Below, piece after piece: positions 2,008-28,050 of a DNA stretch of 28,738 nt (positions within the stretch are counted from its first letter, which is position 1; the number at the start of each line of letters is the position of its first letter). The notes beneath the pieces are model-generated. The model searched no databases. It worked only from the letters and a program-made list of their open reading frames with translations, and was not told where the DNA came from. The position numbers were made by a program, and so were the translations under genes. This stretch comes from Pyrinomonadaceae bacterium (GTDB lineage: Bacteria > Acidobacteriota > Blastocatellia > Pyrinomonadales > Pyrinomonadaceae): the NCBI GenBank assembly GCA_050999015.1, contig JBPCPQ010000291.1, positions 1-28,738 on the forward strand, read 5' to 3'.

Positions 2008-2080
2008 TTCTCTGTGCGCTCTCTGTGACCTCTGTGCCTCAGTGTTAGAAATTCTCTATCCCAACACAGAGCGCACAGAA
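2008..2080. repeat. CTCTGTG/CACAGAG-family tandem repeats arranged as an inverted pair
   Basis: Left arm ttctctgtgcgctctctgtgacctctgtgcctcagtg (from 2008); right arm cacagagcgcacagaa (2065-2080), complementary to the left. The same family recurs at 6076-6259. Confidence 0.75.
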
Positions 2081-2149
2081 GCGGAATGAGTGCTATCATC
2101 ATTCGGCAATTCTAATTTCTACTTCCCAAAACGAATCGCGCCTTTCCGA

Positions 2150-3142
2150 ATGAAGCATAAGCTTCTCGACATCCTGCGCCGCGCGCTGATACTGCTCCTC
2201 GTCGTGTGGACGGTCGTGTCGCTCGTTACGCTGTTAATCGAACTTGTGCCCGGCGATCCGGCGGTGGCGATTCTCGGAGATCAGGCGACGCCGGAGCAAA
2301 TCACCCAGTTTCGACAAAAGCACGGCCTTGACCGCCCGGCCTTCTTCTTCTCTTTTACACCCGACACGCAGGGACGCCGAACATTCCGTTGGCACGGCGC
2401 AGACAATCGTTATGCGGATTACTGGCGGGCGCTTTTGCGCGGCGACATGGGACGCTCTTTCCGCACCGACCGCCCCGTCAGAGAGTTAATTCTCTCGCGC
2501 TACCGGGCGACGATTGAACTCGCCGTCGCCGCGCTTCTTGTCGCCGTCGCAATTGCGATTCCGCTCGGCGTGATTGCCGGAAAGAATCGCGGCACACTAA
2601 CCGACAACGCCCTCTCGGTGATTGCGCTCGTCGGCATCAGTCTGCCGAGTTTCGTCGTCGGCCCACTGATGATTTACGTCTTCGCGGTCTGGCTTGGTTG
2701 GCTCTCGCCTTCTGGACGCTTCAACCCCGAAGACATCATCCTACCTGCCGTGACGCTTGGCGCGGCGCTCTCGGCTTTGCTGACACGCCTTGTCCGCTCG
2801 TCGGTCATCGAAGAACTCGGCGAAGATTATGTGCGGACGGCGCGCGCGAAGGGTCTGAGCGAAACGAAAGTGGTATACAAACACGTCCTCAAGAACGGTC
2901 TGATACCTGTCGTCACCGTGCTTGGCCTGCAACTCGGCGTGCTGCTCGCGGGCGCGATTATCACCGAGAAAATTTTCAACTGGCCCGGCATCGGTCTGTT
3001 ACTGGTGGACGACGGCATCGGCAAACGCGACTATCGCCTCGTGCAAGGCTGTGTACTCGTCATCAGCGTCACATACATCGTCGCCAACACGCTGACCGAC
3101 ACCGTTTATCGCTGGCTCGACCCGCGCATCAGAGTCTCGTGA
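2150..3142 (+). CDS. Dipeptide/oligopeptide/nickel ABC transporter permease (DppB/OppB family)
   Basis: PGDPAVAILG N-terminal motif, GDMGRSF, EAA loop EDYVRTARAKGLSE, ITEKIFNWPGIG and YRWLDPRIR end. Start assigned to ATG 2150 (MKHKLL). Confidence 0.9.
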   Translation: MKHKLLDILRRALILLLVVWTVVSLVTLLIELVPGDPAVAILGDQATPEQITQFRQKHGLDRPAFFFSFTPDTQGRRTFRWHGADNRYADYWRALLRGDMGRSFRTDRPVRELILSRYRATIELAVAALLVAVAIAIPLGVIAGKNRGTLTDNALSVIALVGISLPSFVVGPLMIYVFAVWLGWLSPSGRFNPEDIILPAVTLGAALSALLTRLVRSSVIEELGEDYVRTARAKGLSETKVVYKHVLKNGLIPVVTVLGLQLGVLLAGAIITEKIFNWPGIGLLLVDDGIGKRDYRLVQGCVLVISVTYIVANTLTDTVYRWLDPRIRVS

Positions 3143-3145
3143 AAA

Positions 3146-3218
3146 AGTGGTCAGTAGCCGGTGGTCAGTGAACAGCTAAAAGCTTTTACTGAGCACCGGT
3201 CACTGACTACTGACCACT
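3146..3218. repeat. 7-nt tandem repeat inverted pair (AGTGGTC / ACTGACC family)
   Basis: Left AGTGGTC AGTAGCC GGTGGTC AGTGAAC (3146-3173); right ACTGAGC ACCGGTC ACTGACT ACTGACC ACT (3188-3218). Ends 5 nt before the next ATG. Confidence 0.8.
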
Positions 3219-3223
3219 GCTTT

Positions 3224-4039
3224 ATGAATCGTCTTGCTACCTTCGGATTGATCTTCGTCGTGCTGCTAATTGTCGTCGCCATCTTCGCGCCGCTGATTGC
3301 GACGCATGACGTGGGCGCGACGAATCTCGCAGCGCGCTACCTTTCGCCGTCGTCATCCCACCTGTTCGGCACGGACGCGACGGGGCGCGATATTTTTTCG
3401 CGCGTCGTCTACGGCGCACGCATCTCTTTGCGCGTGGGCTTGGTCGTCGTTACCGTGTCGGCGGTCATCGGAACGATTATCGGGGCCGTCGCGGGCTATT
3501 ACGGCGGGTGGGCGGATCGCATCATCTCCGGTTACTTGCTCAACGTCTTTCTCGCGTTTCCGGGTTTGCTGCTGGCAATCGCGATGGTCGCGTTCCTCGG
3601 CGCGGGACTCAACAAGCTGATTCTGGCGTTGTGCATCATCGGCTGGGTCGGATATGCGCGACTCATTCGCGGGCAGGTGCTGAAGGTGCGCGAGTATGAT
3701 TTCGTGCAGGCGGCGCGGGCGCTCGGCGCGCGTGATCTGCGCATTTTATTCGTCCACATTATGCCGAACGCGATTCAGCCGCTGATCGTGCAGGCAAGTC
3801 TCGGCATGGCCGGCGCGGTGCTGTCGGAAGCGTCGCTGTCGTTCCTCGGTTTGGGCGTGCCGCCGCCGGCTCCGTCGTGGGGCGTGATGCTCGAAGAGGC
3901 GCGCGATATGGCGACGCTTCAGGCCGCGCCGCACGCGCTCATCTTTCCCGGCTTGGCAATTGCCCTGACTGTTCTCGCCTTCAACTTCCTCGGCGACGGG
4001 CTGCGCGAGTATCTTGATCCCCGCCAGCGCGCGCGCTGA
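3224..4039 (+). CDS. Dipeptide/oligopeptide/nickel ABC transporter permease (DppC/OppC family)
   Basis: PSSSHLFGTDATGRDIFSRVVYGARISL, YDFVQAARALGA, SLSFLGLG and FNFLGDGLREYLDPR. Start assigned to ATG 3224; the longer ORF-track N-terminus is translated repeat. Confidence 0.9.
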   Translation: MNRLATFGLIFVVLLIVVAIFAPLIATHDVGATNLAARYLSPSSSHLFGTDATGRDIFSRVVYGARISLRVGLVVVTVSAVIGTIIGAVAGYYGGWADRIISGYLLNVFLAFPGLLLAIAMVAFLGAGLNKLILALCIIGWVGYARLIRGQVLKVREYDFVQAARALGARDLRILFVHIMPNAIQPLIVQASLGMAGAVLSEASLSFLGLGVPPPAPSWGVMLEEARDMATLQAAPHALIFPGLAIALTVLAFNFLGDGLREYLDPRQRAR

Positions 4040-4071
4040 AGTCGAACGTCGCGCTTCAAATTTTCCACTGA

Positions 4072-5184
4072 ATGACCGCTCAATTCTCCACGTCAGTTGT
4101 CGAACCTGTTGACGCTTCCGCCCCGCTCGAAGTGAGTTTCGATGATGGACGCACTTCCGCCGCGACTCCACCAGCGATAGATATTTCCGTGGTGTCGAAA
4201 ACTTACCCGGTGCCGCTCGTCCGCCTCAAACAGTTTTTTCGTCTGCGCGCGAAAGACCCGGTCGAAGCGCTCCGCGATGTCACGCTTTCAGTCCGGCGCG
4301 GCGAGGTTTTCGGCCTCATCGGTCGTAACGGCGCGGGCAAAACGACGCTCACTAAAATCATCGCCACGCTCGTCCAACCGACCTTTGGCGCGGTCTCGGT
4401 CAATGGTTATGACACCGTGCGCGACGAAGCCTCGGTGCGCGGGCAGATTGGATTGGCGAGCGCTGAGGAGCGAAGCTTCTACTGGCGCTTAACAATTGTA
4501 CAGAATCTGACGTTCTTCGCGCGGCTCTATGGACTCAATGCGCGTGCGGCGCGCGCACGCATCGCCGAGTTGCTCGCGCAGTTTGATCTCAAACCTTTGG
4601 CACTTCGACGCTTCGGCGAGCTTTCGACCGGCAACAAGCAACGCATGGCGGTCGCGCGCGCGCTGCTCAACTCGCCGCCCGTTTTGCTTTTAGACGAGCC
4701 GACGCGCTCGCTCGACCCGCTCGCCGCGTCGAGCATGCGCGCGCTCATCGGCTCGCTCGCCGAATCCGACCCGCCGGTGACGGTGCTGCTCACGTCGCAC
4801 AATCTAGCGGAGATTGAGGAACTATGCGCGCGCGTCGCCGTCATCAGTCAGGGGCGCATCCGCGCGCTCGACACGCCGTCCAATCTTCGTGCGCTGCACA
4901 AACACCAGGAGCACGTCCATCTCACCGTGCGCGGCATCACCGCCGAGACCGCCCGGCGTTTGCTCGCCCCGGAGATTGAAGGAATCGAAGTCATCCCGCG
5001 CGACAACACGCTCGACATCACTCTGATACGCGAGCCGATTGACGATCTTCTGGACAAATGCGTTCGCACGTTGATCGGCGGCGGCGCGCACATCGTTTCG
5101 TGCCACGCCGAGCGCGCGACGTTGCTCGACGTGCTGGAAGGTTACGAGCGCGAGCCGAACAACGCGGGGGATACGAAGCGATGA
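4072..5184 (+). CDS. ABC exporter ATP-binding protein (ABC-2/multidrug type)
   Basis: Walker A GRNGAGKTT, signature LSTGNKQR, Walker B VLLLDEPT, H-loop LTSH. Confidence 0.9.
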   Translation: MTAQFSTSVVEPVDASAPLEVSFDDGRTSAATPPAIDISVVSKTYPVPLVRLKQFFRLRAKDPVEALRDVTLSVRRGEVFGLIGRNGAGKTTLTKIIATLVQPTFGAVSVNGYDTVRDEASVRGQIGLASAEERSFYWRLTIVQNLTFFARLYGLNARAARARIAELLAQFDLKPLALRRFGELSTGNKQRMAVARALLNSPPVLLLDEPTRSLDPLAASSMRALIGSLAESDPPVTVLLTSHNLAEIEELCARVAVISQGRIRALDTPSNLRALHKHQEHVHLTVRGITAETARRLLAPEIEGIEVIPRDNTLDITLIREPIDDLLDKCVRTLIGGGAHIVSCHAERATLLDVLEGYEREPNNAGDTKR

Positions 5185-6011
5185 ACGGACTGGCTCTTTT
5201 GTTAGGACGGGTGCGCGCTTTCGTCGCGCGGGATTTCCAGTTGGCGGTCAGCTACCGTCTCGATTTTTTTATGCGGATGCTGAGCATTCTGTTCGTCGTC
5301 ACGACGCTGTTTTTCATCTCGCAAATTTTCACGGGGCAGTTCGAGGCGCGCTTCACGCAGTGGCGCGACCCGCTCGCCGCGTGGATCACGGGTCTCGCAG
5401 TTCTCAACTACTTCATGACCGGATTCTCAAGCCTCGCTACCGCGATCCGCTCCGAGCAATCACAAGGCACGTTAGAAAGCGTGCTGATGACGCCCATCGG
5501 CGTGCCGACTTTAATCATCGCCAGCTCGGCGTGGGATTTCGTGCTCGTCACGTTCCACTCATTTCTCTATTTGTTCTTCGGCTGGCTCTTTTTCGGAGTG
5601 ACGTATCAGGGCAGCTTCCTTCTGGCATTCATGTTCCTGATTCTGACGACGCTCGTGCTCGCGTCGCTCGGCATCATGTCGGCAAGTTTCGCGATGGTCT
5701 TCAAACGCGGCGACCCGTTCGCGCTCATCCTCGGCACCGGCTCGGCCTTCTTCTCCGGCGTCTTCTTCCCGACGCAGCTTTTGTCAGAAGTCGCCGGCAG
5801 CGCTGTCGCAAATATTTCGCGCCTGATTCCGACAACTCACGGCCTCGACGGCATCCGCCGCGTATTGATTCAGGGACAAGGTTTCGCGGAAGTGCGCGAG
5901 CCGATGATGACACTGCTTTTGTTTCTCTCCATCCTGCTTCCCCTCTCCCTCTGGGTCTTTGGTCGCGCCGTGCGCCGCGCAAAACGCGAGGGCAGCTTGA
6001 TACAGTATTGA
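5181..6011 (+). CDS. ABC-2 type transporter permease
   Basis: ATG 5181 overlaps the upstream TGA (ATGA). About 6 hydrophobic helices, IRSEQSQGTLESVLMTP loop, FFSGVFFP and PTTHGLDGIR motifs typical of ABC-2 membrane proteins. Confidence 0.88.
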   Translation: MNGLALLLGRVRAFVARDFQLAVSYRLDFFMRMLSILFVVTTLFFISQIFTGQFEARFTQWRDPLAAWITGLAVLNYFMTGFSSLATAIRSEQSQGTLESVLMTPIGVPTLIIASSAWDFVLVTFHSFLYLFFGWLFFGVTYQGSFLLAFMFLILTTLVLASLGIMSASFAMVFKRGDPFALILGTGSAFFSGVFFPTQLLSEVAGSAVANISRLIPTTHGLDGIRRVLIQGQGFAEVREPMMTLLLFLSILLPLSLWVFGRAVRRAKREGSLIQY

Positions 6012-6367
6012 TTTTCGATTTGCGATTTGCGATTGAATGGCCTCCGGCTCTGATGAGCGTTCGGCTCATTGAGGCTTCACACAGAGACACAGCGCGGCTA
6101 CGCCGCGAGGGGAAAACGGGGAAGGGGAAAAGGGGAAAGGAGGTTGCCGCCCCGACGCTCGCTTCGTCGCAGAATTTCTTCCGCGCAAACAAAGAAATTA
6201 AAGCCTTGTCACACAGAGATTTGGATGATTCCTCCGTGACCTCTGTGCCTCTGTGTGAAACTGCCGCTGCCCATCCACTCACGCGCGCTTACCAACACGA
6301 CGGATCACAACAGAATCGCCAACTTTAAGAACATAAAAGCGCAAACCGAAAATCTAAAATCGCAAAT
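6011..6367. repeat. Nested intergenic repeats: outer ATTTGCG/CGCAAAT heptamer arms, inner CACAGAG/CTCTGTG arms and a G-tract cluster
   Basis: Outer left ATTTTCG ATTTGCG ATTTGCG ATTG (6011-6035); outer right CGCAAAC CGAAAAT CTAAAAT CGCAAAT (6340-6367). Inner arms 6076-6092 and 6243-6259 are 16/17 complementary. Four GGGG runs at 6109-6135. Confidence 0.8.
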
Positions 6368-6370
6368 CAA

Positions 6371-7333
6371 ATGCTTCGCGTTTCCTACACCCCCCGCTAC
6401 TACGCCGACATCGGCGAGAACCACGTCTTTCCGATCCGCAAGTTTGAGATGGCGAGCCGCAGGCTCGTCGAGGAAGGCACTTTGCGGCGCGAGCAGATCA
6501 TCGAGCCGCTGCCGGCGGCGGTCAATGACGTGTTGCTCGTACACACCGAAGATTACATCACGCGATTGCGCGCCGGGACGCTCACCCCGCGCGAGATTCG
6601 CCGCCTCGGTTTGCCGTGGTCGAAAGCTCTGGTGCGCCGCTCGTTTCTTGCCACCGGCGGCACGATCAACGCCGCGCGGTGGGCGCTCGAAGAAGGCGTC
6701 GGCTCGAATCTCGCCGGCGGGACTCATCACGCCTTCGGTGATCGCGGCGAAGGCTTTTGTGTTCTGAATGATGTCGCAATAGCGATTCGCGTCCTGCGGC
6801 GCGACAAGTTGATTCGGCGCGCGGCAATCGTTGACTGTGATGTTCATCAGGGCAACGGCACCGCGACGATCTTCGCGGGCGACCCCGACGTGTTCACCTT
6901 CTCGATGCACGGCGCGAAGAACTATCCGCTTTTCAAAGCCACTTCATCGCTCGATGTGGAGTTGGAAGACGACACTGGTAACGATGCTTACATGGAGACG
7001 CTCGCGCATTACTTACCACAGGTTTTCGCGTTTGCGCCTGACATCATTTTCTATCTGGCGGGGGCTGACCCTTATGCGGGCGACAAGCTCGGACGACTCG
7101 CGCTGACGATTCCCGGTTTGCGTGCGCGCGACGAATTTGTGCTTGGCGCGTGTCAGTCACTGGGACTTCCCGTCGTCACCGTGATGTCCGGCGGTTACGC
7201 GGCGGACATCAACGACACGGTGGAAATCCACTGCAACACGATCCGCGCTGCACAAAGCATCTTCGATGCAGTTCAAAGTTCAAGATTCAAAGTTCAAAGA
7301 GGTGAGCCGCACGTTTTGAACTTTGAACCTTAA
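6371..7333 (+). CDS. Histone deacetylase / AcuC family Zn-dependent deacetylase
   Basis: GGTHHA, GFCVLND, DCDVHQGNGT, YLAGADPYAGDKLG and SGGY catalytic motifs. Confidence 0.92.
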   Translation: MLRVSYTPRYYADIGENHVFPIRKFEMASRRLVEEGTLRREQIIEPLPAAVNDVLLVHTEDYITRLRAGTLTPREIRRLGLPWSKALVRRSFLATGGTINAARWALEEGVGSNLAGGTHHAFGDRGEGFCVLNDVAIAIRVLRRDKLIRRAAIVDCDVHQGNGTATIFAGDPDVFTFSMHGAKNYPLFKATSSLDVELEDDTGNDAYMETLAHYLPQVFAFAPDIIFYLAGADPYAGDKLGRLALTIPGLRARDEFVLGACQSLGLPVVTVMSGGYAADINDTVEIHCNTIRAAQSIFDAVQSSRFKVQRGEPHVLNFEP

Positions 7334-7356
7334 ATTTTGAACTTTGAACTTTGAAT
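7271..7356. repeat. 7-nt tandem repeat inverted pair (GTTCAAA / TTTGAAC family)
   Basis: Left GTTCAAA GTTCAAG ATTCAAA GTTCAAA (7271-7298); right TTTGAAC TTTGAAC CTTAAAT TTTGAAC TTTGAAC TTTGAAT (7315-7356). Overlaps the deacetylase 3' end and stops 2 nt before the crtI ATG. Confidence 0.85.
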
Positions 7357-7358
7357 TT

Positions 7359-8843
7359 ATGAATATCACCGTTATCGGCAGCGGCTTCGGCGGATTATAC
7401 GCCGCGATTCTTTTGCAGGCGCAGGGACACGAAGTCACAATCATTGAGAAGCGCGATAAGCCGGGCGGTCGGGCGTATGTTTACGAGCAGGATGGCTTCG
7501 TCTTTGACGGCGGCCCGACGATCATCACCGCGCCGTGGCTGATCCGCGAGCTTTTCGAGCGTTGCGGCAAGCGCACGGAAGATTACGTCAGCCTCGTTCC
7601 CGTTGATCCGTTCTATAACGTCCGCTTCGAGGATGGCTCGGTTTTTCATTACAACGGCGACCGGGAGTTTCTGTTGAGTGAGATTCGCCGTTTCAATCCT
7701 GAAGATGTCGAGGGCTATAAGCGATTCCTCGCCGCGACCGAGAAGATTTACAAGACCGGCTTTGAGTTGATTGATAAGCCGTTCACCAATTTCGGCGACA
7801 TGATGAGAGTCATCCCAGACATGGTGCGGCTCAGGTCGCACAAATCGGTCGCGCAATTTGTCAACGGCTTCATCAAAGACGAACGGCTGCGGCAGGTCTT
7901 CAGCTTTCACCCGCTCCTAATCGGCGGCAATCCGTTCCAGACCACTTCGATCTACGCGCTGATTCACAAGCTGGAACAGGAGTCGGGCGTCTGGTTTGCG
8001 ATGGGCGGGACGGGCGCGCTGGTACGAGCGTTCGTCAAACTCTTTGAAGACATCGGCGGCCAGATGATGCTCGATACGGAAGTTGCTGAGATTGTAGTTG
8101 ATGAAAACACGCGCCGCGCGAAAGGAGTGCGACTGAAGAATGATGAGCTAGTTCCCGCCGATGCTGTGGTTAGCAATGCGGATGTGGCGTTCACTTACCT
8201 CAACCTCGTACACGCAAGGTTTCGCCGCAAGCATACTGACCGCAGGCTTCAACGCATGCGCTATTCGATGTCGCTGTTTGTGGTTTACTTCGGCACCGAC
8301 CGGAAGTATGAAGACATCGCCCACCACGAGATCATCATGGGGCCGCGCTATCGCGGACTCGTTGACGACATCTTCCGGCGCAAGCATCTCCCCGACGATT
8401 TCTCGCTGTACCTTCATCGCCCGACGGCGACCGATCCGTCGCTCGCCCCGGCGGGCTGTGATTCGTGGTACGTGCTTTCGCCCGTTCCGCACCTCGGCGG
8501 CGTAACGGATTGGCGCACTAAGGCAAAACCCTACCGTGACGCAATCATCAAGTATCTTGAAGAGCGATACCTGCCTGACCTCTCGAAGCACATCGTCACC
8601 GAGCACTACATTGACCCGCTTCACTTCCGCGACACGTTGAACAGTTATTTGGGGAGCGCCTTTTCCGTCGAGCCGATTCTCACGCAGTCGGCGTGGTTTC
8701 GCCCGCACAACTTGAGCGAAGACATTCCGAATCTTTTCTTCGTCGGTGCGGGCACGCACCCCGGCGCGGGGCTGCCCGGCGTGATGAGTTCCGGTAAGAT
8801 CGTCGCGCAGATGATCGGCGACGGAAACGGGAAAGTCGCCTAA
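7359..8843 (+). CDS. crtI: Phytoene desaturase (CrtI family carotenoid desaturase)
   Basis: FAD motif VIGSGFGGL, EKRDKPGGRAY, FDGGPTIITAP, FSFHPLLIGGNPF, QSAWFRPHN and VGAGTHPGAGLPGV. Start assigned to ATG 7359. Confidence 0.88.
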   Translation: MNITVIGSGFGGLYAAILLQAQGHEVTIIEKRDKPGGRAYVYEQDGFVFDGGPTIITAPWLIRELFERCGKRTEDYVSLVPVDPFYNVRFEDGSVFHYNGDREFLLSEIRRFNPEDVEGYKRFLAATEKIYKTGFELIDKPFTNFGDMMRVIPDMVRLRSHKSVAQFVNGFIKDERLRQVFSFHPLLIGGNPFQTTSIYALIHKLEQESGVWFAMGGTGALVRAFVKLFEDIGGQMMLDTEVAEIVVDENTRRAKGVRLKNDELVPADAVVSNADVAFTYLNLVHARFRRKHTDRRLQRMRYSMSLFVVYFGTDRKYEDIAHHEIIMGPRYRGLVDDIFRRKHLPDDFSLYLHRPTATDPSLAPAGCDSWYVLSPVPHLGGVTDWRTKAKPYRDAIIKYLEERYLPDLSKHIVTEHYIDPLHFRDTLNSYLGSAFSVEPILTQSAWFRPHNLSEDIPNLFFVGAGTHPGAGLPGVMSSGKIVAQMIGDGNGKVA

Positions 8844-8874
8844 TGTTTTGGTTCACCGAAGCCAACTCTTGAAA

Positions 8875-8893
8875 CTGACATCTGACCTCCGAC
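8875..8893. repeat. Short 7-nt tandem repeat (CTGACAT CTGACCT CCGAC)
   Basis: Three units with period 7 in the crtI-mtgA spacer; no partner arm seen. Confidence 0.5.
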
Positions 8894-8906
8894 GTTTTAA
8901 GACTTC

Positions 8907-9677
8907 ATGTCGAGATTGATTAAATTAACGGCGCTCGGCGTTTTGGCGCTCGTCACTTTATGGATTGTTTATGAGGTAGCGACGTTCCCGCGCGTCGCAC
9001 CCCTGCGTGATAAGAATCCTGAGACGACCGCGCTGATTGAGACCCGCATCGAAGAGGCGCGGCGTGCGGGCAGGAATCCGAGGCGCGTGCAGGGGTGGGT
9101 TCCGCTCGAAAGAATTTCCCCGCACCTGCAACGCGCGGTGCTCGCCGGCGAAGATGCGAACTTCACGACGCACAACGGTTTTGATTACGAAGCTTTACAG
9201 AAGGCGTGGGACGAGGCCGAGCGCGAAGCAGCGAAGGAGGCGAAGGAAGAAGGTGATACAGATCCGCCGAGTTGGATGGCGACGATGAACAATCTCAAGC
9301 GCGGCGCGTCAACAATCACGCAACAACTGGCAAAAAATCTCTATCTGACGACCGAACGCTCCTTCGTGCGGAAAGCGCGCGAAGCCGTCCTCACATATTT
9401 CCTCGAACGCTCGCTATCGAAGCGCCGCATCCTTGAGATTTACCTGAACGTGATCGAATGGGGAGACGGTGTTTACGGAGCGGAAGCGGCGGCGCGGACT
9501 TACTTCAACAAATCGGCGGCGCAATTGAGCGAGCGCGAAGCGGCTTTTCTGTCCGCGATGATTCCCAACCCGCGTACCGTCTTCAACCCCAAACAGAATC
9601 CCCGCCGCGTTGCCCGGCGGCAGCGAATCATCCTGCGCGGCGTGCCTTACGTGAAGCTTCCGGCAGGCACGAATTAG
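8907..9677 (+). CDS. mtgA: Monofunctional biosynthetic peptidoglycan transglycosylase
   Basis: N-terminal TM, WVPLERISPHLQRAVLAGEDANF, RGASTITQQLAKNLYL, RKAREA and RRILEIYLNVIEWGDGVYGAEAAA (GT51 motifs); no transpeptidase domain. Confidence 0.9.
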   Translation: MSRLIKLTALGVLALVTLWIVYEVATFPRVAPLRDKNPETTALIETRIEEARRAGRNPRRVQGWVPLERISPHLQRAVLAGEDANFTTHNGFDYEALQKAWDEAEREAAKEAKEEGDTDPPSWMATMNNLKRGASTITQQLAKNLYLTTERSFVRKAREAVLTYFLERSLSKRRILEIYLNVIEWGDGVYGAEAAARTYFNKSAAQLSEREAAFLSAMIPNPRTVFNPKQNPRRVARRQRIILRGVPYVKLPAGTN

Positions 9678-20168: not shown

Positions 20169-20169
20169 C

Positions 20170-20309: not shown

Positions 20310-20539
20310 TAAGTACACTTGTCAGACCATAAATGTGGACGCGGATAACGTATTCACCTTTGATTACGATAGCCGCCGAAGACATCACAGCCGCGAGTTT
20401 ACCAACACAGAGTATGCTTTTTCGCATAAAACCGTCAAAACCAGCGTTTTTTTAAGAGACGCCGCGCCGGTCTCTGTGATATATGTCGTTACGTAAGCTT
20501 TTCAATTTTCCATTTCGCAGGAGGTAGCCACACCACGCC

Positions 20540-20851
20540 ATGGCGACGACCAAAACAGCCAAGAAACGCATGACTCAATCCGAAGTGCTCAATCACTTCG
20601 CCGAAAAGTTCGACATGAAACGCACGCAGGCAAAGGAAATCTTTGAAGAATTAGCTACGCTCGCAAGTAGCGAAGTCGCAAAGAACGGCGAATTTGCTCT
20701 GCCGGGATTCGGGAAACTGGTACTTTCAGAACGTAAAGCGCGCGAGGGACGCAATCCGCAGACTGGTGAAACTATTGCCATTCCTGCCAAAACTACGCTT
20801 AAGTTCCGCGTTAGTAAGGGAATGAAAGATACCGTCGTGCCCAAAAAGTAG
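20540..20851 (+). CDS. hup: HU family DNA-binding protein
   Basis: FALPGFGKLVLSERKAREGRNPQTGETIAIPAKTTLKFR is the HU/IHF signature; AGGAGGT upstream. Confidence 0.93.
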   Translation: MATTKTAKKRMTQSEVLNHFAEKFDMKRTQAKEIFEELATLASSEVAKNGEFALPGFGKLVLSERKAREGRNPQTGETIAIPAKTTLKFRVSKGMKDTVVPKK

Positions 20852-21450
20852 TTGCCGGCCAGATCGTTATTTTGCCACTGATAAACATCAACAACGCATC
20901 ATGCGAGTGGCGGCTGGCAGGAAGAATCTTCCGGTCAGCCGCTCCTCGCAGGTCATCTAAAGCTAATCTTTCAGTTACATCATCCCCTCCCCTCTCCGAC
21001 CGACGGGTGAGTTCTTAATCACGAGAAGAAAGAATCAGCGACAGACAACGATTTGCGATTGCGCGGGGTTCCGGTTTGGCTGCGCTTTATGCGAGCGGGA
21101 ATCTAACGCCAACGCCGATGTTCGCTTGCGTGTAGACAAGACCCTCTTGGCTGGCTAATTCTCTTATGAAATGGTGCCAAACCCAAGCTAAAAGCCCTCT
21201 AATCCTTCAATTCCCTTAAAATTTCAAGCGGCATAAAGGCGTAGAAAATTTTATAGCCTTTTTAGATAAAATCGTTTAGAATGCCGGTTTTCAAAGGCCC
21301 TACAATTTACTTCCTGAGAGATACGCTTACTGGAAGTGTGTCGGCCTGTGAGAGGAATCGTAAACGCATCCCGAAAGGGGTTCAATGCATCAAACTGTTT
21401 GTTTCGGGAAAAGAATATAAGCACATCCGATTGTTTGGGTATGCGCAATT

Positions 21451-21720
21451 ATGGAGGAGATTAGCGAAGTGAATTTTAATGTAACATTACCTTTGGATGA
21501 GCGGCTTAAAGGGATAGACCATATCCAAGCGCGCCGCTATTCCAAGTTGAATGGTATCGCCCTCGACATCGCCACAGAAGGGATTCTACGTCACTTGCGA
21601 GCCTGTGACCGGATGGATGTCAATCCCGACGTTGCAGCGGTGCGCGAAATTATTGACGATGCTCTTAATGGTCGCCGTGTTTTCGCCGAGACACATGACG
21701 ACCAGTATGTAGCGGCGTAA
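21451..21720 (+). CDS. Small hypothetical protein (89 aa, or 83 aa from GTG 21469)
   Basis: Protein-like helical sequence. GGAGGAG at 21453-21459 sits 9 nt before an in-frame GTG. Double stop TAATAA, followed by a strong hairpin. Confidence 0.7.
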   Translation: MEEISEVNFNVTLPLDERLKGIDHIQARRYSKLNGIALDIATEGILRHLRACDRMDVNPDVAAVREIIDDALNGRRVFAETHDDQYVAA

Positions 21721-21743
21721 TAATTTAGATTGCTTCCAAACCT

Positions 21744-21787
21744 TGCGAAAGGGCTGTCAGTTGCTAGCAACTGACAGCCCTTTCGCA
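21744..21787. terminator. Perfect 44-bp palindrome between convergent genes (probable bidirectional terminator)
   Basis: TGCGAAAGGGCTGTCAGTTGCTAGCAACTGACAGCCCTTTCGCA is its own reverse complement. Confidence 0.7.
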
Positions 21788-21813
21788 TGAAGAAAACTTT
21801 TATCCGACACTCA

Positions 21814-22380
21814 CTATGGATTTTCATTTTTTGCGATGCCCTTAAGTTGGAAGCGCATAATCGCGAGTAGACTTAAAGCGTCTGTAATCTCCCCGGAAAC
21901 TGACATTCGCACCGCCTCATCAATCGTCACACGTCGGATATTAAGAACCTCCGTACCATCTGGACGAGATTTGCCTTGAACGAGCTTGGTGGCTAAGAAC
22001 CAGATGGCGCGTTCATCGGTGACGGAGTTTGAAAGATACGCCTCGCCTAACTTTTCCCACTTCTCGGCATATAAGCCTGTTTCTTCTTCCAACTCGCGCC
22101 GCGCCGCATCAAGCGGTTCTTCGTCTTCCGCGCATCCGCCCTCAGGTATTTCCCATGAATACTCACCGAGCGGGTAACGGTACTGCCCGACGAGGTAAAT
22201 GAATCCTTCCTCGACGGCGAGTACTCCGATGGCAGTATTCTTGAAGCTGACCACACCGTAGATTCCCTCTTGACCGTCGGGACGAATCACGGCGTCTTCG
22301 CGGACGCTGATCCAAGGATTGTCATATATTTTTTGTGAGGAAAGTGTTCGCCATGGATTTATCGTCTCGTCGGATTTCAT
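21814..22380 (-). CDS. NUDIX hydrolase (ADP-ribose pyrophosphatase-like)
   Basis: Nudix box EGGCAEDEEPLDAARRELEEETG, YDNPWISVRED and GQYRYP motifs. Start assigned to ATG 22380. Confidence 0.9.
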   Translation of the reverse strand: MKSDETINPWRTLSSQKIYDNPWISVREDAVIRPDGQEGIYGVVSFKNTAIGVLAVEEGFIYLVGQYRYPLGEYSWEIPEGGCAEDEEPLDAARRELEEETGLYAEKWEKLGEAYLSNSVTDERAIWFLATKLVQGKSRPDGTEVLNIRRVTIDEAVRMSVSGEITDALSLLAIMRFQLKGIAKNENP

Positions 22381-22493
22381 AAACTGTCGGGAAGCCAAAG
22401 TTGTCGAACGGTGTCACGCCGACTCGATGCTTCTGTAATGTTCGTACACGTTTCAATGTTACTTGCCAAATGGCTCAATTCAAACCACTCGAC

Positions 22494-23597
22494 CTACTCG
22501 GCGGGAACATTCCGTAGCGAGTCTTGTTTCTCCATAACTGTCGGCTCGGTCATCGTTGATTCGACCGGACGCTCTGCCTGCCTGTAAACGTCTAATAAAG
22601 CGAGTGTGATGGCGACAATCACCGGCCCCATCACTAAGCCGAGAACTCCGAAGACCTGCAATCCGCCGAGAACTGAAAAGAAGATGAGTAGTTCGTGCAG
22701 CCGCGTTCTTTCACCCACCAACCGGGGACGAAGAAAGTTGTCAACCGTGCCAATTACGAGCGCGCCCCACACTGTTAGTAAAATCGCCTTCAGCCATGCC
22801 CCCGTCGCCGCCAAGTATATCGCCGCCGGAACCCACACGATGAACGCGCCGGCCATCGGTATCATTGACATAAACAGCATCACCACTCCCCACAGAAGCG
22901 GTGAAGGTAAACCTAACGCCCAAAAAGCGACGCCACCGAGCGCGCCCTGAATCGCGGCGATCACAAGCACCCCGTATAAGCTCGCGCTGATTACTTCGCG
23001 CGTGCGCTCGAATATGCTGTGCGCCTGCGCGCGCTCTAGAGGAAGAGAGTTTTTCAGACTTGTACGGATGCGCTCGCCGTCGCGGAACAAATAGTACATC
23101 GTGAAGATAACGAAAAAGATTTCCACCACGAGGCCCACGATGCCGCCGACGACGCCCAGTGTGCGCCCCGCAATTGCCCCACTGACGGCCTGCAACCGCT
23201 CCGCGATGAACTGCTGTGAACGCAGGCGCTCGGTATCAACATACTGGTCTAGCCAACGTAAGAACCGTCCCGTCAGCGGAGACTCAGGATCAAGTAAGAC
23301 TTCGACGTTTCGCTGGAGGTTCTGCGCCGCGTCGGTCACTTCGTTAACGACCGCGAGGGTGACAAGCGTCAACGGAAGAAGAATGGTTGTAATAACAATC
23401 AAGCACGAGATGGCCGAACTCCAGCTCGGGCTTTTCGTTCGTGCGACGAGCCGTTTGTGGACGGGATAGAAAACCACCACCAGCACCGCCGCCCACATTA
23501 GCACTTCAATGAAGGGTCGCAGCATTAGCCAGCACAAATAAATAGCGGCGAGTGTGGCGGCTGATAGGGCGATCCAACGGACTTCGATTTTTTTCAT
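22494..23597 (-). CDS. AI-2E family transporter (PerM/YhhT-like)
   Basis: Multiple TMs, FTMYYLFRDG, IQGALGG, DNFLRPRLVG and GGLQVFGVLGLVMGPVI are AI-2E hallmarks. Confidence 0.9.
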   Translation of the reverse strand: MKKIEVRWIALSAATLAAIYLCWLMLRPFIEVLMWAAVLVVVFYPVHKRLVARTKSPSWSSAISCLIVITTILLPLTLVTLAVVNEVTDAAQNLQRNVEVLLDPESPLTGRFLRWLDQYVDTERLRSQQFIAERLQAVSGAIAGRTLGVVGGIVGLVVEIFFVIFTMYYLFRDGERIRTSLKNSLPLERAQAHSIFERTREVISASLYGVLVIAAIQGALGGVAFWALGLPSPLLWGVVMLFMSMIPMAGAFIVWVPAAIYLAATGAWLKAILLTVWGALVIGTVDNFLRPRLVGERTRLHELLIFFSVLGGLQVFGVLGLVMGPVIVAITLALLDVYRQAERPVESTMTEPTVMEKQDSLRNVPAE

Positions 23598-23715
23598 TGC
23601 TTTAGTTTTTAGTGCTTCGTCGCCACTTTAACACACACGGCACGGGAGATTACGATTCATTCGCCGGCGCTCCCGGCGGCTTGCTGTCTGCGCCCTAAGT
23701 CTGCACACCGCCCGG

Positions 23716-23746
23716 TTGACGCAGACCGTCCGCCGCGTGATAACAT
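23716..23746 (+). promoter_or_regulatory. Possible promoter for tRNA-Arg
   Basis: TTGACG with an extended -10 TGa-TAACAT; the 19-nt spacer is long. Confidence 0.4.
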
Positions 23747-23772
23747 CGCCCGCAAATACCGTCATGGGATGT

Positions 23773-23847
<75 letters not shown>

Positions 23848-23958
23848 ATTTACCGCACATAATTTTCGGCGGGCGCTTAACTCCTCATGATGTTCACGGC
23901 GTTATACATTCATCTGCGTAGAAGACATCAGCCGACAGATCGCATATCGCTTAGGTAC

Positions 23959-23988
23959 TTGTCAGAATATAAATTGCTCCGGTACTAT
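23959..23988 (+). promoter_or_regulatory. Probable promoter for tRNA-His
   Basis: TTGTCA, 18 nt spacer, TACTAT; about 45 nt upstream of the tRNA. Confidence 0.55.
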
Positions 23989-24032
23989 GTCTCAGTTTTC
24001 GACCTTTCAAGGCGCGGTTGATTCAGCCTTAC

Positions 24033-24110
24033 GGCGGCTATAGCTCAGTCGGTTAGAGCGCAAGATTGTGGATCTTGAGGTCGAGGGTTCGAGACCCTCT
24101 AGCCGCCCCA
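24033..24110 (+). tRNA. tRNA-His(GUG) with encoded G-1 and CCA
   Basis: G-1, GCGGCTA/TAGCCGC acceptor, C73, CAAGA-TTGTGGA-TCTTG anticodon arm, GAGGG-TTCGAGA-CCCTC T arm, CCA end. Confidence 0.96.
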
Positions 24111-24125
24111 CCAATATCAGGAACT

Positions 24126-24158
24126 TACGGGCATCCACGCGATGCCCGTATCTGTTTT
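24126..24158 (+). terminator. Probable intrinsic terminator after tRNA-His
   Basis: 10-bp stem TACGGGCATC/GATGCCCGTA with a 5-nt loop, followed by TCTGTTTT. Confidence 0.6.
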
Positions 24159-24184
24159 GCGTGCCAGAGATATAAATTATCAAT

Positions 24185-24745
24185 ATGCCGGAAGAAACAC
24201 CGCTCGACTATTATGACGTGCTGCAGGTCAGCACGAGCGCCGAGCCGGAGACCATCAATCGCGTCTACCGGATGCTCGCGCAACGGTTCCATCCCGACAA
24301 TCAGAAAACAGGCGACGAGAGCCGCTTCCGCGCGCTCCTCGAAGCCTACACAATTCTGAGCGACCCGGAAAAGCGAGCGCGGTATGACGTTGTGCATCAG
24401 CAGCAGCGGCAGGATCGCTGGCGGCTCGTGTCCACCGGCGCGCAGGTTGAGAACGATTTCGAGATGGAGCAAATCGTCCGGCTTACGGTGCTCGAAGTCC
24501 TCTACACCAAACGGCGCATGGAGCCGAGTGACCCCAGCATCTTTTCGCGCGATCTTGAGAGACTGACCGGCAGGCCGCGTGAGCATCTCGAGTTCACCAT
24601 CTGGTATCTCGTGCAGAAGAGGTTGGTGACGCGCGACGATAATTCAAGCATGCACCTGACGGCTGAAGGCGCTGAATACTTGGAGCAGAGCTATCGCGCC
24701 AATTTACAGCAGAAGCGACTGCAAGCTTCCAACGAGAACAAGTGA
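24185..24745 (+). CDS. J-domain (DnaJ-like) protein with a C-terminal helical domain
   Basis: DYYDVLQV, AQRFHPDN (HPD motif) and AYTILSDPEKRARYD; C-terminal FTIWYLVQKRLV...LTAEGAEYLE. Confidence 0.88.
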   Translation: MPEETPLDYYDVLQVSTSAEPETINRVYRMLAQRFHPDNQKTGDESRFRALLEAYTILSDPEKRARYDVVHQQQRQDRWRLVSTGAQVENDFEMEQIVRLTVLEVLYTKRRMEPSDPSIFSRDLERLTGRPREHLEFTIWYLVQKRLVTRDDNSSMHLTAEGAEYLEQSYRANLQQKRLQASNENK

Positions 24746-24923
24746 GCCTGCGCGCACCGCGTGCCCTCAACACCCGCAGCCGGTAGTTCTTTTTAAGCTT
24801 CGATTATCCGCCGCGCTGTCGTCAGCAACATAAGCGCCTGTGGTAAAATCCATCACGTAAATGCGATTAACCTTTTACCGAAACAATACGCTGCCGACGG
24901 TCATACTTACGGGCGGTGTAAGA

Positions 24924-24954
24924 ACTGCCCACTGACCACCGGCCACGAATCACT
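24924..24954. repeat. 7-nt tandem repeat (ACTGACC family, single arm)
   Basis: ACTGCCC ACTGACC ACCGGCC ACGAATC ACT; same family as 3188-3218, just upstream of the AAGGAGA RBS. Confidence 0.6.
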
Positions 24955-24975
24955 CTTTCAAGGAGAAATTCAGCA

Positions 24976-25395
24976 ATGCCTTATCCAGAAATGTTCATTG
25001 CCCCGATGCGACAAGACCTGACGAACATCGGGGTTGAAGAGACTAGAAAGCCGGAGCAGGTCGAAGAAGCTCTGAACAAAAGCGACGGCACGGTGCTGGT
25101 CGTCGTCAACTCGGTCTGCGGCTGTGCGGCGGGCAAGGCCCGACCGGGCGTCGCCCTCGCGCTTCAGCACGAACGCCGCCCCGACCGCTCCATCACCGTC
25201 TTCGCCGGAGCGGACATTGACGCGACCGACACGGCGCGCAGCTACTTCGCGCCCTACCGCCCGTCGTCGCCACAAATCGCGCTCTTCAAAGACGGCCAGC
25301 TCGTCTATATGATGGAGCGTCATCAAATCGAAGGAAAATTCGCCGAGCAAATCGCGCGGGATTTAACCCAAGCCTTCGACGAGCACTGCGCATAA
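24976..25395 (+). CDS. BrxA/BrxB family bacilliredoxin (YphP/YqiW, DUF1094)
   Basis: MPYPEMFIAPMRQDLT start, VVVNSVCGCAAGKARPG (CGC active site), TVFAGAD and PSSPQIALFKDG; AAGGAGA RBS. Confidence 0.92.
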   Translation: MPYPEMFIAPMRQDLTNIGVEETRKPEQVEEALNKSDGTVLVVVNSVCGCAAGKARPGVALALQHERRPDRSITVFAGADIDATDTARSYFAPYRPSSPQIALFKDGQLVYMMERHQIEGKFAEQIARDLTQAFDEHCA

Positions 25396-25399
25396 TAAG

Positions 25400-25469
25400 G
25401 GATGAGGGCGGAAGGATGAGGGATGAAACAAAAAGTTCCTATTCATCCCTCATCCTTCCACCCTCATCC
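25400..25469. repeat. 7-nt tandem repeat inverted pair (GGATGAG / CTCATCC family)
   Basis: Left GGATGAG GGCGGAA GGATGAG GGATGAA; right TTCATCC CTCATCC TTCCACC CTCATCC. The arms are 27/28 complementary with a 14-nt loop, ending 8 nt before the recG ATG. Confidence 0.88.
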
Positions 25470-25477
25470 CTTCGTCT

Positions 25478-27916
25478 ATGACCGCCCTCACTCTCTTAAC
25501 GCCGATCCTCTCGCTCCCCCAACACCGCATCCCGCGCCTCGGCGCGACGGGCGCGCGGCGGCTCGCGCTCGCGCTGGCGAACGTCTCAGGCAAGGGAGAC
25601 GCGGGCGAATCAACAATTGAAGACCTGCTCAATTACCTGCCGATGCGCTACGAGGATCGCTCGAACCTCGCGCGCATCAGCGACCTTTATGACGGACTTG
25701 AGGCTTCGCTCGAACTTTACGTCCGCGTCGCGGGCGGCTTTCAGGTGGGAAAGAATCGTTCGCCGAAAGCGCCGCCACTCTTCATTTTTGAGATTACGGC
25801 GAGCGACCCCGAACGAACGGGTAAGCCCGTCGTCGTGTGGTGGTTCGTCTCGGGACGACAGGCGCAGCGCATCGTCGCTTACAACCGCCAGCGGTTCGAG
25901 CGGAGCGTGCGCTTCATCGCGTTTGGCAGGTGGGAGTGGGACGCGCGCCGCAACACCTTTGCCTTACGCCTCAACAAACCCGATGAACTTGAAATGCTTC
26001 CCGGCACGTGGACGCCGCCGGAGCACGCGCTACTCCGCCTCACCGAAGACGGGGGACAGGGGTCGGGGGTCGGGGGTCGGGAAAAAGAAGAACAAGAGGG
26101 GGAAGGGGGAAAGGGAAAGGGAAAGGGAGATGCTCATGGTAATTCGGCAGCCTTGAGTGATGAAGCGGATGCGGGAGAAGAGTCATCTGGTGTTGCAGAT
26201 GATCTTGAAGATGAAGATGAGGAGGGCGGGCACGATCCGGCGCTGGCGGCGATTCACGTCGGGCGGCGCGTGCCGGTGTATCGCAAGCTCGGAGAGTTTC
26301 GCACGAAGCGTCTGCGCGAGATTGTGCATGATGTCTTGGCGCGGTTAGATGACGAACAGATTGAAGAGACGCTACCCGCCGAATTACTCGTCCGGCAACA
26401 CTTGGTCAGTCGCGTCGAAGCCGTGCGTCGCATCCACTTCCCAATCGAAGATGTGCCGCTCGCCGAATACGAGCGGGCGCGAAGTCCGGCGCACCTGCGT
26501 CTCATCTTCGAGGAATTTTTCTGGGTCGCGCTTGCCATCGCCGTCCGTCGCGGTGAAAGAATCAAGGAGCCGAAGGGCGCGCTGATCGAAGTCACCGACC
26601 GCGTGCGTGAACGGATGGACTCGATTCTTCCCTTCACCCTCACCGCCGCGCAACAACGCTCGCTGACGCGCATCCTCGACGACATGCAATCGGACGCCCC
26701 GATGAATCGTCTCTTGCAGGGTGATGTCGGCAGCGGTAAAACGGTGGTCGCGCTGCTGGCGATGCTCGCCGCGATGGAGAACGGCTACCAGTCGGCGCTG
26801 ATGGTGCCCACAGAAATCCTCGCTGAGCAACACGCGCGCAACATTAAACGCATGCTCGCCCCGACGCCTTACCGCGTCGAGATGCTCGTCGGTTCCTTAC
26901 GCGCGGGCGAGAAGCGAAAACTTCATGCCGCGCTCGCCGAAGGCGAAGTCCACGCCTGCATCGGGACGCATGCGGTGATTCAGGAGGCAGTGTCGTTCAG
27001 CAAGCTCGGCCTCGTCGTGATTGACGAGCAGCACCGCTTCGGCGTGCTGCAACGCGCGGCGCTCCGCGAGCGCGGTTTCAACCCGGACGTTTTAGTGATG
27101 ACCGCGACGCCGATTCCCCGTTCGCTCGCAATGACCGTCTACGGTGACCTTGATGTATCGGTGATTGACGAACTGCCGCCCGGAAGGACGCCGATTAAAA
27201 CCGTCGTCGTCGGCGAGGATCAGCGCGCGGGCGTTTATAAAGGCGTCGAGCGCGAAGTGCGGAGCGGGCGTCAGGTTTACGTCGTTTATCCGCTCGTCGA
27301 AGAATCGGAGAAGATGGATTTGAAAGACGCGACGCGGATGTTTGAACAACTGCGCGACCGAGTGTTTCCGCATTTCCAGATCGGTCTGCTGCACGGCAGA
27401 ATGAAAACTGCGGAGAAGGAAGAAGCGATGCGCGCCTTCGTCTCCGGCGCGACGCAGGTACTCGTCGCCACCACGGTCGTCGAAGTCGGCGTTGACGTGC
27501 CGAACGCCTCGGTGATGGTGATCGAGCACGCCGAGCGCTTCGGCCTCTCGCAGCTTCATCAATTGCGCGGGCGCGTCGGGCGCGGCGCGGAGAAATCCTT
27601 CTGCGTGCTGCTCGCTTCCGACAAACAAACGAGTGTCGCGCGCGCGCGCCTCGGCATCATGGAGGAAACGTCGGACGGTTTTCGCATCGCCGAGAAAGAC
27701 CTCGAACTTCGCGGCCCCGGCGAAGTGATGGGCACCAGACAATCAGGCGTCCCAGTGTTCCGCGTCGGCAATCTCGTGCGCGACATCGAGATTCTGGAAG
27801 AAGCGCGGCGCGAAGCCGATTACTATTTCACCGCCCGCAAGCGCACGCGCGAAACATCCCAACTCATCGAGCGCGTGCGCGCCGACGTGCGCTTCGGATT
27901 GGCTGCCGTCGGGTGA
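25478..27916 (+). CDS. recG: ATP-dependent DNA helicase RecG
   Basis: LLNYLPMRYEDRS, MNRLLQGDVGSGKT (Walker A), IDEQHRFG, MTATPIPRSL, ATTVVEVGVDVPNA, QLHQLRGRVGRG and DLELRGPGE. Confidence 0.97.
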   Translation: MTALTLLTPILSLPQHRIPRLGATGARRLALALANVSGKGDAGESTIEDLLNYLPMRYEDRSNLARISDLYDGLEASLELYVRVAGGFQVGKNRSPKAPPLFIFEITASDPERTGKPVVVWWFVSGRQAQRIVAYNRQRFERSVRFIAFGRWEWDARRNTFALRLNKPDELEMLPGTWTPPEHALLRLTEDGGQGSGVGGREKEEQEGEGGKGKGKGDAHGNSAALSDEADAGEESSGVADDLEDEDEEGGHDPALAAIHVGRRVPVYRKLGEFRTKRLREIVHDVLARLDDEQIEETLPAELLVRQHLVSRVEAVRRIHFPIEDVPLAEYERARSPAHLRLIFEEFFWVALAIAVRRGERIKEPKGALIEVTDRVRERMDSILPFTLTAAQQRSLTRILDDMQSDAPMNRLLQGDVGSGKTVVALLAMLAAMENGYQSALMVPTEILAEQHARNIKRMLAPTPYRVEMLVGSLRAGEKRKLHAALAEGEVHACIGTHAVIQEAVSFSKLGLVVIDEQHRFGVLQRAALRERGFNPDVLVMTATPIPRSLAMTVYGDLDVSVIDELPPGRTPIKTVVVGEDQRAGVYKGVEREVRSGRQVYVVYPLVEESEKMDLKDATRMFEQLRDRVFPHFQIGLLHGRMKTAEKEEAMRAFVSGATQVLVATTVVEVGVDVPNASVMVIEHAERFGLSQLHQLRGRVGRGAEKSFCVLLASDKQTSVARARLGIMEETSDGFRIAEKDLELRGPGEVMGTRQSGVPVFRVGNLVRDIEILEEARREADYYFTARKRTRETSQLIERVRADVRFGLAAVG
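26051..26127 (+). repeat. G-rich 7-nt repeats (GGGGGTC; GGGGGAA) inside recG
   Basis: GGGGGAC AGGGGTC GGGGGTC GGGGGTC GGG (26051-26081) and GGGGGAA GGGGGAA AGGGAAA GGGAAAGGG (26098-26127), translated in frame. Confidence 0.8.
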
Positions 27917-28023
27917 TGAACTAACAGTGATGGAAGAAATGAAAACATTAAATGGAAAAAGAAAGGTGAATGCGTAACCGCTTTTACCATCCACTTTCTC
28001 TCTTTCCCTTTTCCCACTTCTGA

Positions 28024-28050
28024 ATCCTGTCTATCCTGTCCATCCTTGTT
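28024..28050. repeat. 9-nt tandem repeat ATCCTGTCT ATCCTGTCC ATCCTTGTT
   Basis: Three units with period 9 in the spacer after recG, next to purine/pyrimidine-rich arms at about 27930-28020. Confidence 0.6.

Follow-up and report, generated by a model that had tools for sequence, protein, structure and literature searches.

What produces the tandem heptamers that recur along a single contig of a soil acidobacterium with one architecture and many unrelated unit sequences? The stretch of DNA analysed here, the window, comprises 28,738 nucleotides and is contig C159 of a Pyrinomonadaceae metagenome-assembled genome (MAG; G000, 2.79 Mb in 504 contigs, 69% complete). An original prediction, made from the letters of the window alone, had ascribed its heptamer arrays to a common generating mechanism, which implies an origin locus by locus. 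Our results demonstrate that the arrays are copied elements and not local products, and that these elements are linked to genes of the PF05635 family, a link that is well supported by the data. The explanation that we favor, with a probability of roughly 0.6, is that the window arrays are the arms of mobile foldback elements, and that the window copies are gene-less derivatives of PF05635 cassettes resembling the intervening sequences (IVSs) of 23S rRNA.

Tandem repeats were called with Tandem Repeats Finder (TRF) on all 504 contigs, with first-order Markov-simulated sequence as control. Period 7 accounted for 1066 of 2751 rows, against 71 of 723 in the control, and for 11 of the 29 arrays in the window, which bears out the genome-wide excess that had been anticipated. 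After merging, these rows correspond to 1036 non-overlapping arrays with 200 canonical units, and about 20 families account for most of them. Non-coding DNA, which makes up 16.6% of G000 in a split that rests on our own crude gene caller, holds 73% of the arrays (an array being assigned to it when no more than 25% of its length is in coding sequence). G000 thus displays both marks of STRR-type repeats, an excess of period 7 over expectation and a mostly intergenic location.

The arrays are predominantly arranged as inverted arms. An exact reverse-complement 10-mer is found within 250 nt of 66% of the non-coding arrays, and a direct 10-mer near only 22 of the 1036 arrays. Adjacent arrays form 238 inverted pairs versus 4 direct ones, with a median loop of 24 nt and at least 55 unit families, so that the single architecture with many unrelated units noticed in the window holds for the genome as a whole. 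A typical arm consists of about four degenerate heptamers (28-31 nt; interquartile range 3.1-4.4 units), and the stem, with medians of 30 bp and -43 kcal/mol over 156 elements, is a long one of the IVS type (about 28 bp in Coxiella). G and C make up 37% and 11% of the 5' arms, respectively, and the 3' arms have the opposite composition, so neither arm is able to pair with itself. The loops are polar as well, with about 50% A on the 5' side and 42-48% T on the 3' side, which adds about 5 bp to the stem and leaves a tip of 4-8 nt.

The first arm has more G than C in 195 pairs, more C than G in 5, and equal amounts in 38; at the level of families, 44 are exclusively G-first and 2 exclusively C-first. 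Arms that flank PF05635 genes have the same G-rich-first order, both in relatives and in other phyla. Since an inverted repeat reads alike on both strands, this polarity is intrinsic to the element and uninformative on the direction of transcription, and a tally of 162 out of 186 elements with the purine-rich arm first, considered as an orientation relative to transcription, was dropped for this reason. Stop codons were also dropped as a cause of the polarity, because some families have stop triplets in the 3' arm instead, and no evidence was found for telomerase-like addition at a break.

The connection between these hairpins and a gene is visible in their longer copies. In the complete genome of the relative G083, exact AGGGATG arms 386 nt apart enclose an open reading frame (ORF) of 126 codons, or 116 aa when counted from the ATG used. 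It matches PF05635 and TIGR02436, the S23p/Avd-like family that is named 'four helix bundle protein' or after the intervening sequences of 23S rRNA, in which it was first discovered. In G000 itself, each of the three PF05635 genes is flanked by inverted heptamer arms, of three families (AGAGGTC, GAAGGCG, and GATTGCG) that are among the commonest short families of that genome. Across 29 relatives, 26 of the 29 evaluable PF05635 loci have inverted heptamer arms right around the gene, and so do 15 of 16 PF05635 genes from other phyla (two cyanobacterial MAGs, one Bacteroidota MAG, and one further MAG). Of 554 small genes of G000 taken as a control, 7 have flanking inverted arms, 3 of these heptamer-periodic. 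The IVS-like design, with arms around a PF05635 gene, is found at loci L230, L231, L232, and L147; the gene-bearing L230 folds with its arms paired, and the nearest Protein Data Bank chains to the G000 PF05635 protein are 2GSC (7e-24) and 2RLD. The S23p of Xanthomonas is a homopentameric toroid (PMC4990558), and PF05635 resembles Avd, the accessory protein of diversity-generating retroelements (PMC10053308).

Arms and genes also vary together. The PF05635 protein tree clusters by unit type, and protein distance correlates with unit distance (Mantel r = 0.33, a value that 0 of 5000 permutations reach). Inverted arms (score of at least 30) accompany 18 of the 19 evaluable orthologues that are 61-75% identical to the cassette protein of G083, and for 15 of these the arms are clearly of the AGGGATG/AAGGATG type; in several cassettes at 66-75% protein identity the AGGGATG 29-mer is exact or has one or two mismatches, and the arm is therefore better conserved than the gene it encloses. 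Arms were surveyed in 151 sampled genomes of the family, representing 60 genera. Both the cognate gene and at least 10 AGGGATG arms occur in 16 of these genomes, the gene with fewer arms in 5, the arms alone in 13, and neither in 117 (odds ratio 28.8). The family tallies include the unpublished genomes G017, G043, G121, G139, and G154, on which alone no conclusion depends; G043 and G154 are counted in this 2x2 table, and loci L004 and L216 come from G017 and G043, respectively.

Short and long copies share more than their unit. In G083, the first 12 nt of the short loops are identical to those of the interior of the copy that carries the gene, which is what internal deletion would be expected to produce, and the short and long AGAGGTC copies of G000 match similarly, having the same arms. 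Terminal inverted repeats and derivation by internal deletion from a longer coding element, both typical of MITEs (miniature inverted-repeat transposable elements), are thus present.

A locus-by-locus origin would have slippage amplify a local heptamer and quasi-palindrome (template-switch) correction mirror it into the other arm, with no mobile element involved. In many bacteria no other long simple repeats are as common as heptamers, and slippage has been proposed for them (Mrazek 2007, as related in PMC4679880). Variant units are indeed mirrored between arms, for instance at 25398-25426, where the arm's odd second unit reappears in the partner arm, and the clearly homologous hairpins that two congeners of G083 (G031 and G125) have at one orthologous spacer differ by one whole unit in both arms. 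Against such an origin, the families consist of defined, non-periodic arms of about 29 nt that have been copied to many loci and are shared between genera. AGGGATG and AGAGGTC arms carry the same odd unit at the same position at 17-18 unrelated loci. The AGGGATG 29-mer, with up to two mismatches, is present in 59 of the 151 family genomes and in 33 of the 60 genera at 0-191 copies per genome, in similar numbers forward and reverse, while the reversed-pattern control gives practically none (2 chance hits in one genome). Loops between exact arms in G083 form subfamilies that recur in both orientations at unrelated loci, which identifies the whole arm-loop-arm as the copied unit. The narrow range of arm lengths likewise argues against local amplification. 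Contigs from four independent metagenomes, covering the species at 97-99% identity, keep the hairpins and have no 7-nt indels, in a test that is weak because metagenome contigs lose rare variants. Hypervariability of copy number was rejected as a property of the arrays with the same reservation. We consider this origin improbable: slippage probably shapes the arms but does not found them.

The elements also turn over at fixed sites and lie within one another. Syntenic loci in other genera have, in the same spacers, hairpins of different units, each abutting stop and ATG. At the spacer shared by G031 and G125, four congeners of G083 have hairpins from three unrelated families; the TAA and ATG on either side are conserved, and the short linkers are similar. 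Elements nested in the loops of other elements are found in the window (6010-6368) and at three loci of G083 (L112, L137, and L148), and strict nesting occurs in G000 once besides the case in the window.

Such persistence at a given spacer brings in a further reading, in which the hairpins are host regulatory RNA structures under selection, acting as intercistronic processing or stabilizer stems, as terminators, or in translation coupling by bringing stop and start closer together, with the family structure being secondary. The hairpin is kept at the same spacer in the four congeners and in several genera despite replacement of its arms. It spans the distance from stop to start codon, with the upstream stop at -2 to +5 nt relative to the 5' arm and with the start mostly 3-8 nt (peak 5-6) past the 3' arm, and its short A-rich and pyrimidine-rich linkers are conserved. 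G000 also appears to be poor in Shine-Dalgarno (SD) sequences: an SD-like 4-mer is present at -20 to -4 of 31% of ATGA-overlap junctions, compared with 15% in a control window, and in only 14% of the leaders downstream of elements. On the other side, the sense strand has no folding advantage over the antisense strand (p = 0.62), with equal G-U counts. Most array pairs (84.5%) lie between co-directional genes, and convergent gaps hold 16 of 220 pairs (7%) compared with 11% of all gaps, so that the enrichment at convergent gene ends typical of intrinsic terminators is absent across the 220 pairs of G000. With about 30-35 bp and -43 kcal/mol, the stems far exceed what termination or coupling needs, copy number varies from 1 to 191 within one genus (four members have 191, 53, 1, and 1 copies of the AGGGATG 29-mer), and a polarity that is the same on both strands says nothing of transcription. 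A regulatory function as the primary explanation is therefore rather unlikely in our judgment, and it is compatible with a mobile origin.

The general shape of the elements, with two conserved inverted arms, a long hairpin, a less conserved middle, an intergenic location, and many copies, also recalls REPINs, the hairpins built from repetitive extragenic palindromic (REP) sequences and mobilized by REP-associated tyrosine transposases (RAYTs), with which they further share copy numbers in the tens to hundreds and inheritance together with a cognate gene (Bertels and Rainey 2011, PMC3116915). Movement by a RAYT (a Y1 HUH transposase) or by the TnpA of IS200/IS605 would require a corresponding gene, and Y1_Tnp genes do occur in 128 of the 151 family genomes, a count in which PF01797 hits are pooled across clades. 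The arms, however, are not palindromic REPs, none being a short imperfect palindrome and their G-rich sequence being unable to self-fold as REPs do, and the cognate gene is PF05635 and not a Y1 transposase. A single-copy Y1 gene flanked by the repeats, as expected of REPINs, was not found: the Y1 genes of G000 on contigs C138 and C140 have other, GC-rich REP-like hairpins beside them and no heptamer arrays nearby, and G015, with 36 AGGGATG arms, has no PF01797 match at 97% completeness. The only Y1 gene found between AGGGATG arms in G083 belongs to a 585-bp insertion sequence (IS) with its own ends and with five other copies elsewhere. The suggestion that a RAYT might be the partner gene was therefore abandoned, and we regard REP-type transposition as very improbable. 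The gene that does co-occur with the arrays, PF05635, had not been foreseen in the original prediction.

Two observations on these Y1 genes stand apart from the heptamers. The IS200/RAYT-like genes at C138:670-1011 and C140:1400-1742 (L105 and L106) are flanked by GC-rich hairpins starting with a TAGCCC-like motif, which constitute a second repeat system unrelated to the heptamer elements. The 585-bp IS200-like element (L123:1529-2113, on contig C1 of G083) has six near-identical copies (the others at L138-L142); one occupies the loop of an AGGGATG hairpin, immediately past its 5' arm, and the L139 copy lies in that of a terminator-like hairpin, which suggests that this element targets hairpin loops.

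According to the explanation that we favor, mobile foldback elements would have colonised intergenic gaps, each beginning just past a stop codon and ending a few bases short of the next start, and the many families, each with its own arm sequence, would be internally deleted versions of longer PF05635 cassettes. The pentameric PF05635 protein would recognize the tandem heptamers cognate to it, and such recognition would account for the periodicity of the arms as well as for their conservation. RNase III would cut the long perfect stem in the transcript, as in rRNA IVSs, and the element would then be tolerated only where the cut is harmless, between cistrons. Spread would use an enzyme that is encoded by the host or supplied in trans. 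Protein binding, RNase III cutting, and the mode of movement are the steps that we infer; the sequencing runs found to hold window DNA are DNA metagenomes with no RNA run among them, and excision by RNase III is proposed by analogy.

The nearest counterpart is the 23S rRNA IVS of Coxiella burnetii and Leptospira, in which an inverted-repeat stem of about 28 bp likewise surrounds a gene of about 120 aa encoding a four-helix bundle. In Coxiella, the IVS is a selfish element of the 23S rRNA that carries an S23p ORF and whose 28-bp terminal stem is cut mid-stem by RNase III; its sporadic distribution, which the present elements share, suggests horizontal spread, and it is tolerated where the RNase III cut is harmless (PMC4990558), as we propose here. 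The present elements differ in lying between protein genes, in their tandem-heptamer arms, in having hundreds of gene-less copies and dozens of families, and in that cutting by RNase III is presumed. All copies seen are between protein genes and none in a 23S rRNA helix, the rRNA of G000 not being covered.

The likeness to mobile DNA is similarly partial. As in MITEs, arms and inner termini are common to the short copies and a longer coding copy; the differences are that neither a transposase nor a target-site duplication was found and that the partner protein has no known catalytic activity. In the foldback elements of Drosophila, inverted arms that likewise consist of short tandem repeats surround a variable center. 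As the original prediction had held, the arrays are neither one transposon nor fragments of a known IS.

Several results weigh against the explanation that we favor. None of the elements in the window contains PF05635, and only 3 cassettes were found in the 69%-complete genome. An autonomous partner encoding a transposase, as MITEs have, is lacking, since PF05635 has no known transposase activity, and the flanks of 50 aligned copies have no target-site duplication. Recent copying is demonstrated in relatives but not in G000, because the loops of G000 are nearly all unique (3 similar pairs among 230 elements, 0 in shuffles); its 53 AGGGATG arms differ from consensus by at most two mismatches, so that arms are held far tighter than loops. 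The 13 arm-rich genomes without a close cognate PF05635 gene, among them G130 (73 arms), G111 (40), G015 (36), and G011 (29), indicate that short elements persist, and perhaps spread, without the protein. The association statistics are overstated, as related genomes are not independent. Selection on the hairpins at the RNA level found no support, given the equal folding of sense and antisense strands. Finally, a link to rRNA IVSs in relatives was rejected: the 23S rRNA insertions checked in G083 (L202, about 1.4 kb) and G137 (L203, about 0.7 kb) contain no PF05635 and look like introns of the LAGLIDADG type, and that of G137 encodes a LAGLIDADG-like motif and is of the intron/homing-endonuclease type.

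Heptameric STRR repeats were reportedly described in cyanobacteria by Mazel in 1990. The resemblance to them that had been pointed out for the window is borne out, since these repeats and those of Xanthomonas are likewise intergenic tandem heptamers, and in the cyanobacterial MAGs that we checked heptamer arrays flank PF05635 genes as in the present elements. In Xanthomonas, GGGAATC forms 70-75 arrays per genome in convergent inverted pairs with the G-rich array first (Rehm 2015, PMC4692102), a polarity that matches that of G000. The published STRR and Xanthomonas heptamers differ from ours in having one or a few units per genome, in that G-quadruplex or regulatory roles have been proposed for them, and in having no link to a protein-coding cassette, whereas most of the at least 55 families of G000 are unable to form a G-quadruplex. 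The TAACTGA repeats of marine Beggiatoaceae likewise form heptamer arrays that lie a few nucleotides upstream of start codons, and they are scattered patchily over phyla in which heptamer repeats are also present; they are single-unit arrays and nearly all direct (169 direct sets versus 1 inverted; MacGregor 2015, PMC4679880), in contrast to the inverted pairs of G000. The heptamer repeats of cyanobacteria, Xanthomonas, and Beggiatoaceae have been described without a protein partner (PMC4692102, PMC4679880), the 2015 paper on Xanthomonas states that no detailed literature on heptamer repeats exists (PMC4692102), and our literature search found no paper linking heptamer repeats and PF05635.

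A bolder reading, which we put forward only tentatively, is that PF05635 pentamers might bind tandem heptamers sequence-specifically, one unit per subunit, and that protein and arms together might form an unrecognised class of mobile foldback elements without a conventional transposase, uniting the STRR repeats, the Xanthomonas heptamers, the rRNA IVSs, and the acidobacterial hairpins. The G-first polarity would then be a footprint of the copying or recognition of the elements. Heptamer repeats have had no accepted origin or partner so far, and the link supplies a testable protein partner; for S23p/PF05635, a family with a solved structure and no known function, it supplies a concrete test. 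The elements occupy a tenth or more of the intergenic spacers of G000. They affect annotation by giving genes stop codons and C-terminal tails, as at 7270-7355, and by displacing ribosome-binding regions, and metagenome assemblies are probably broken by them.

Within the window, the sites that had been listed as inverted arms fared unevenly. Strong hairpins were found at 3146-3219, 6010-6368 (nested), 7270-7355, and 25398-25471, and a moderate one at 2009-2081, while 8875-8893, 24924-24954, 26050-26128, and 28024-28046 do not form inverted-arm elements. The window thus contains five or six gene-less copies. No PF05635/TIGR02436 ORF is present in its elements, which are for this reason classed as gene-less derivatives and not as IVS cassettes, and tblastn detected no PF05635 remnants in the long gene-less loops, including 6035-6334.

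The AGGGATG-family hairpin at 25398-25471 (-57.7 kcal/mol, z -11.2, for 25392-25477) consists of two 29-nt arms, each with a fixed odd second unit, and a 16-nt loop, A-rich then T-rich. A TAA (25393-25395) ends 2 nt upstream, and the ATG of recG (25478) lies 6 nt downstream. The family has 53 arms in G000, up to 191 in relatives, and cognate PF05635 cassettes in 19 relatives. The AGTGGTC-family hairpin at 3146-3219, whose G-rich 5' arm and C-rich 3' arm flank an A/T-rich inner stem, folds with -46.1 kcal/mol (z -8.3, for 3140-3224); the TGA stop (3140-3142) is 3 nt upstream and a conserved ATG (3224, the start being set by orthologues) 4 nt downstream. A PF05635 cassette of the relative G132 (L178) has arms of the GTGGTCG/GTGGTCA type, comparable to this family.

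The hairpin at 7270-7355 belongs to the AGTTCAA family, which comprises 18 pairs in G000 (-38.0 kcal/mol, z -7.0, for 7262-7361). The upstream deacetylase ORF crosses the 5' arm and terminates at a TAA (7331-7333) within the 3' arm, and the next ATG (7359) is 3 nt past the element. The orthologous spacer of G015 contains a diverged hairpin of similar periodicity. Metagenome depth at 7040-7593 reaches 460-1900x, compared with about 10-90x elsewhere, which indicates many other copies of this family. In the nested element at 6010-6368, outer ATTTGCG arms (6010-6034 and 6335-6368) surround an inner CACAGAG/CTCTGTG hairpin (about 6075-6092 and 6231-6256) together with a GGGGAAA array (6108-6140); in the fold of 6005-6372, both the outer and the inner arms pair. 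The upstream stop (6009-6011) overlaps the start of the arm, and an ATG (6371) lies 2 nt past the element. One metagenome contig covers 6023-6399 with 3 substitutions and 0 gaps.

The moderate hairpin at 2009-2081 lies in the spacer between ubiE and an oppB-like gene, where a CTCTGTG-type left arm (2009-2044) pairs with a CACAGAG-type right arm (about 2065-2081; -28.2 kcal/mol, z -3.0, for 2003-2086). In relatives (loci L015, L020, L039, L026, L014, and L018), the spacer that corresponds to 1997-2150 has a conserved, structured stretch of about 150 nt with motifs such as GGTTGTCGGGGC and GCTACGTTTT flanking a stem, and G000 carries the heptamer hairpin in its place. The stretch in the relatives may serve the opp operon as a leader or as a riboswitch-like element.

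Among the remaining sites, the CTGACCT array at 8875-8893 has 2.5 units, no partner arm, and no hairpin (z -1.0), and is possibly a decayed solo arm or a product of chance; the orthologous spacers in G014, G018, and L022 do carry heptamer hairpins. The degenerate C-rich stretch at 24924-24954 resembles the 3' arm of the AGTGGTC family, has neither partner arm nor hairpin (z -1.1), and is at best a solo remnant. The 9-mer array at 28024-28046 forms no hairpin (z +0.2). The arrays at 26050-26128 are G-rich, of period 6/7, on the same strand, and within the RecG coding sequence. They encode part of a RecG linker (about residues 190-250), an acidic, variable, low-complexity segment that is also present in an orthologue.

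The genes around the repeats are co-directional, ordinary housekeeping genes and encode an M16 peptidase, UbiE, Opp permeases, an ABC transporter, a deacetylase, a CrtI-like oxidase, a transglycosylase, and RecG. The nearest relatives of the CrtI-like amine oxidase (7359-8840) outside the Pyrinomonadaceae are from Ktedonobacteria, Cyanobacteria, and Gemmatimonadota, with 72-79% identity; such a wide taxonomic spread at this level of identity hints at horizontal transfer of this carotenoid gene.

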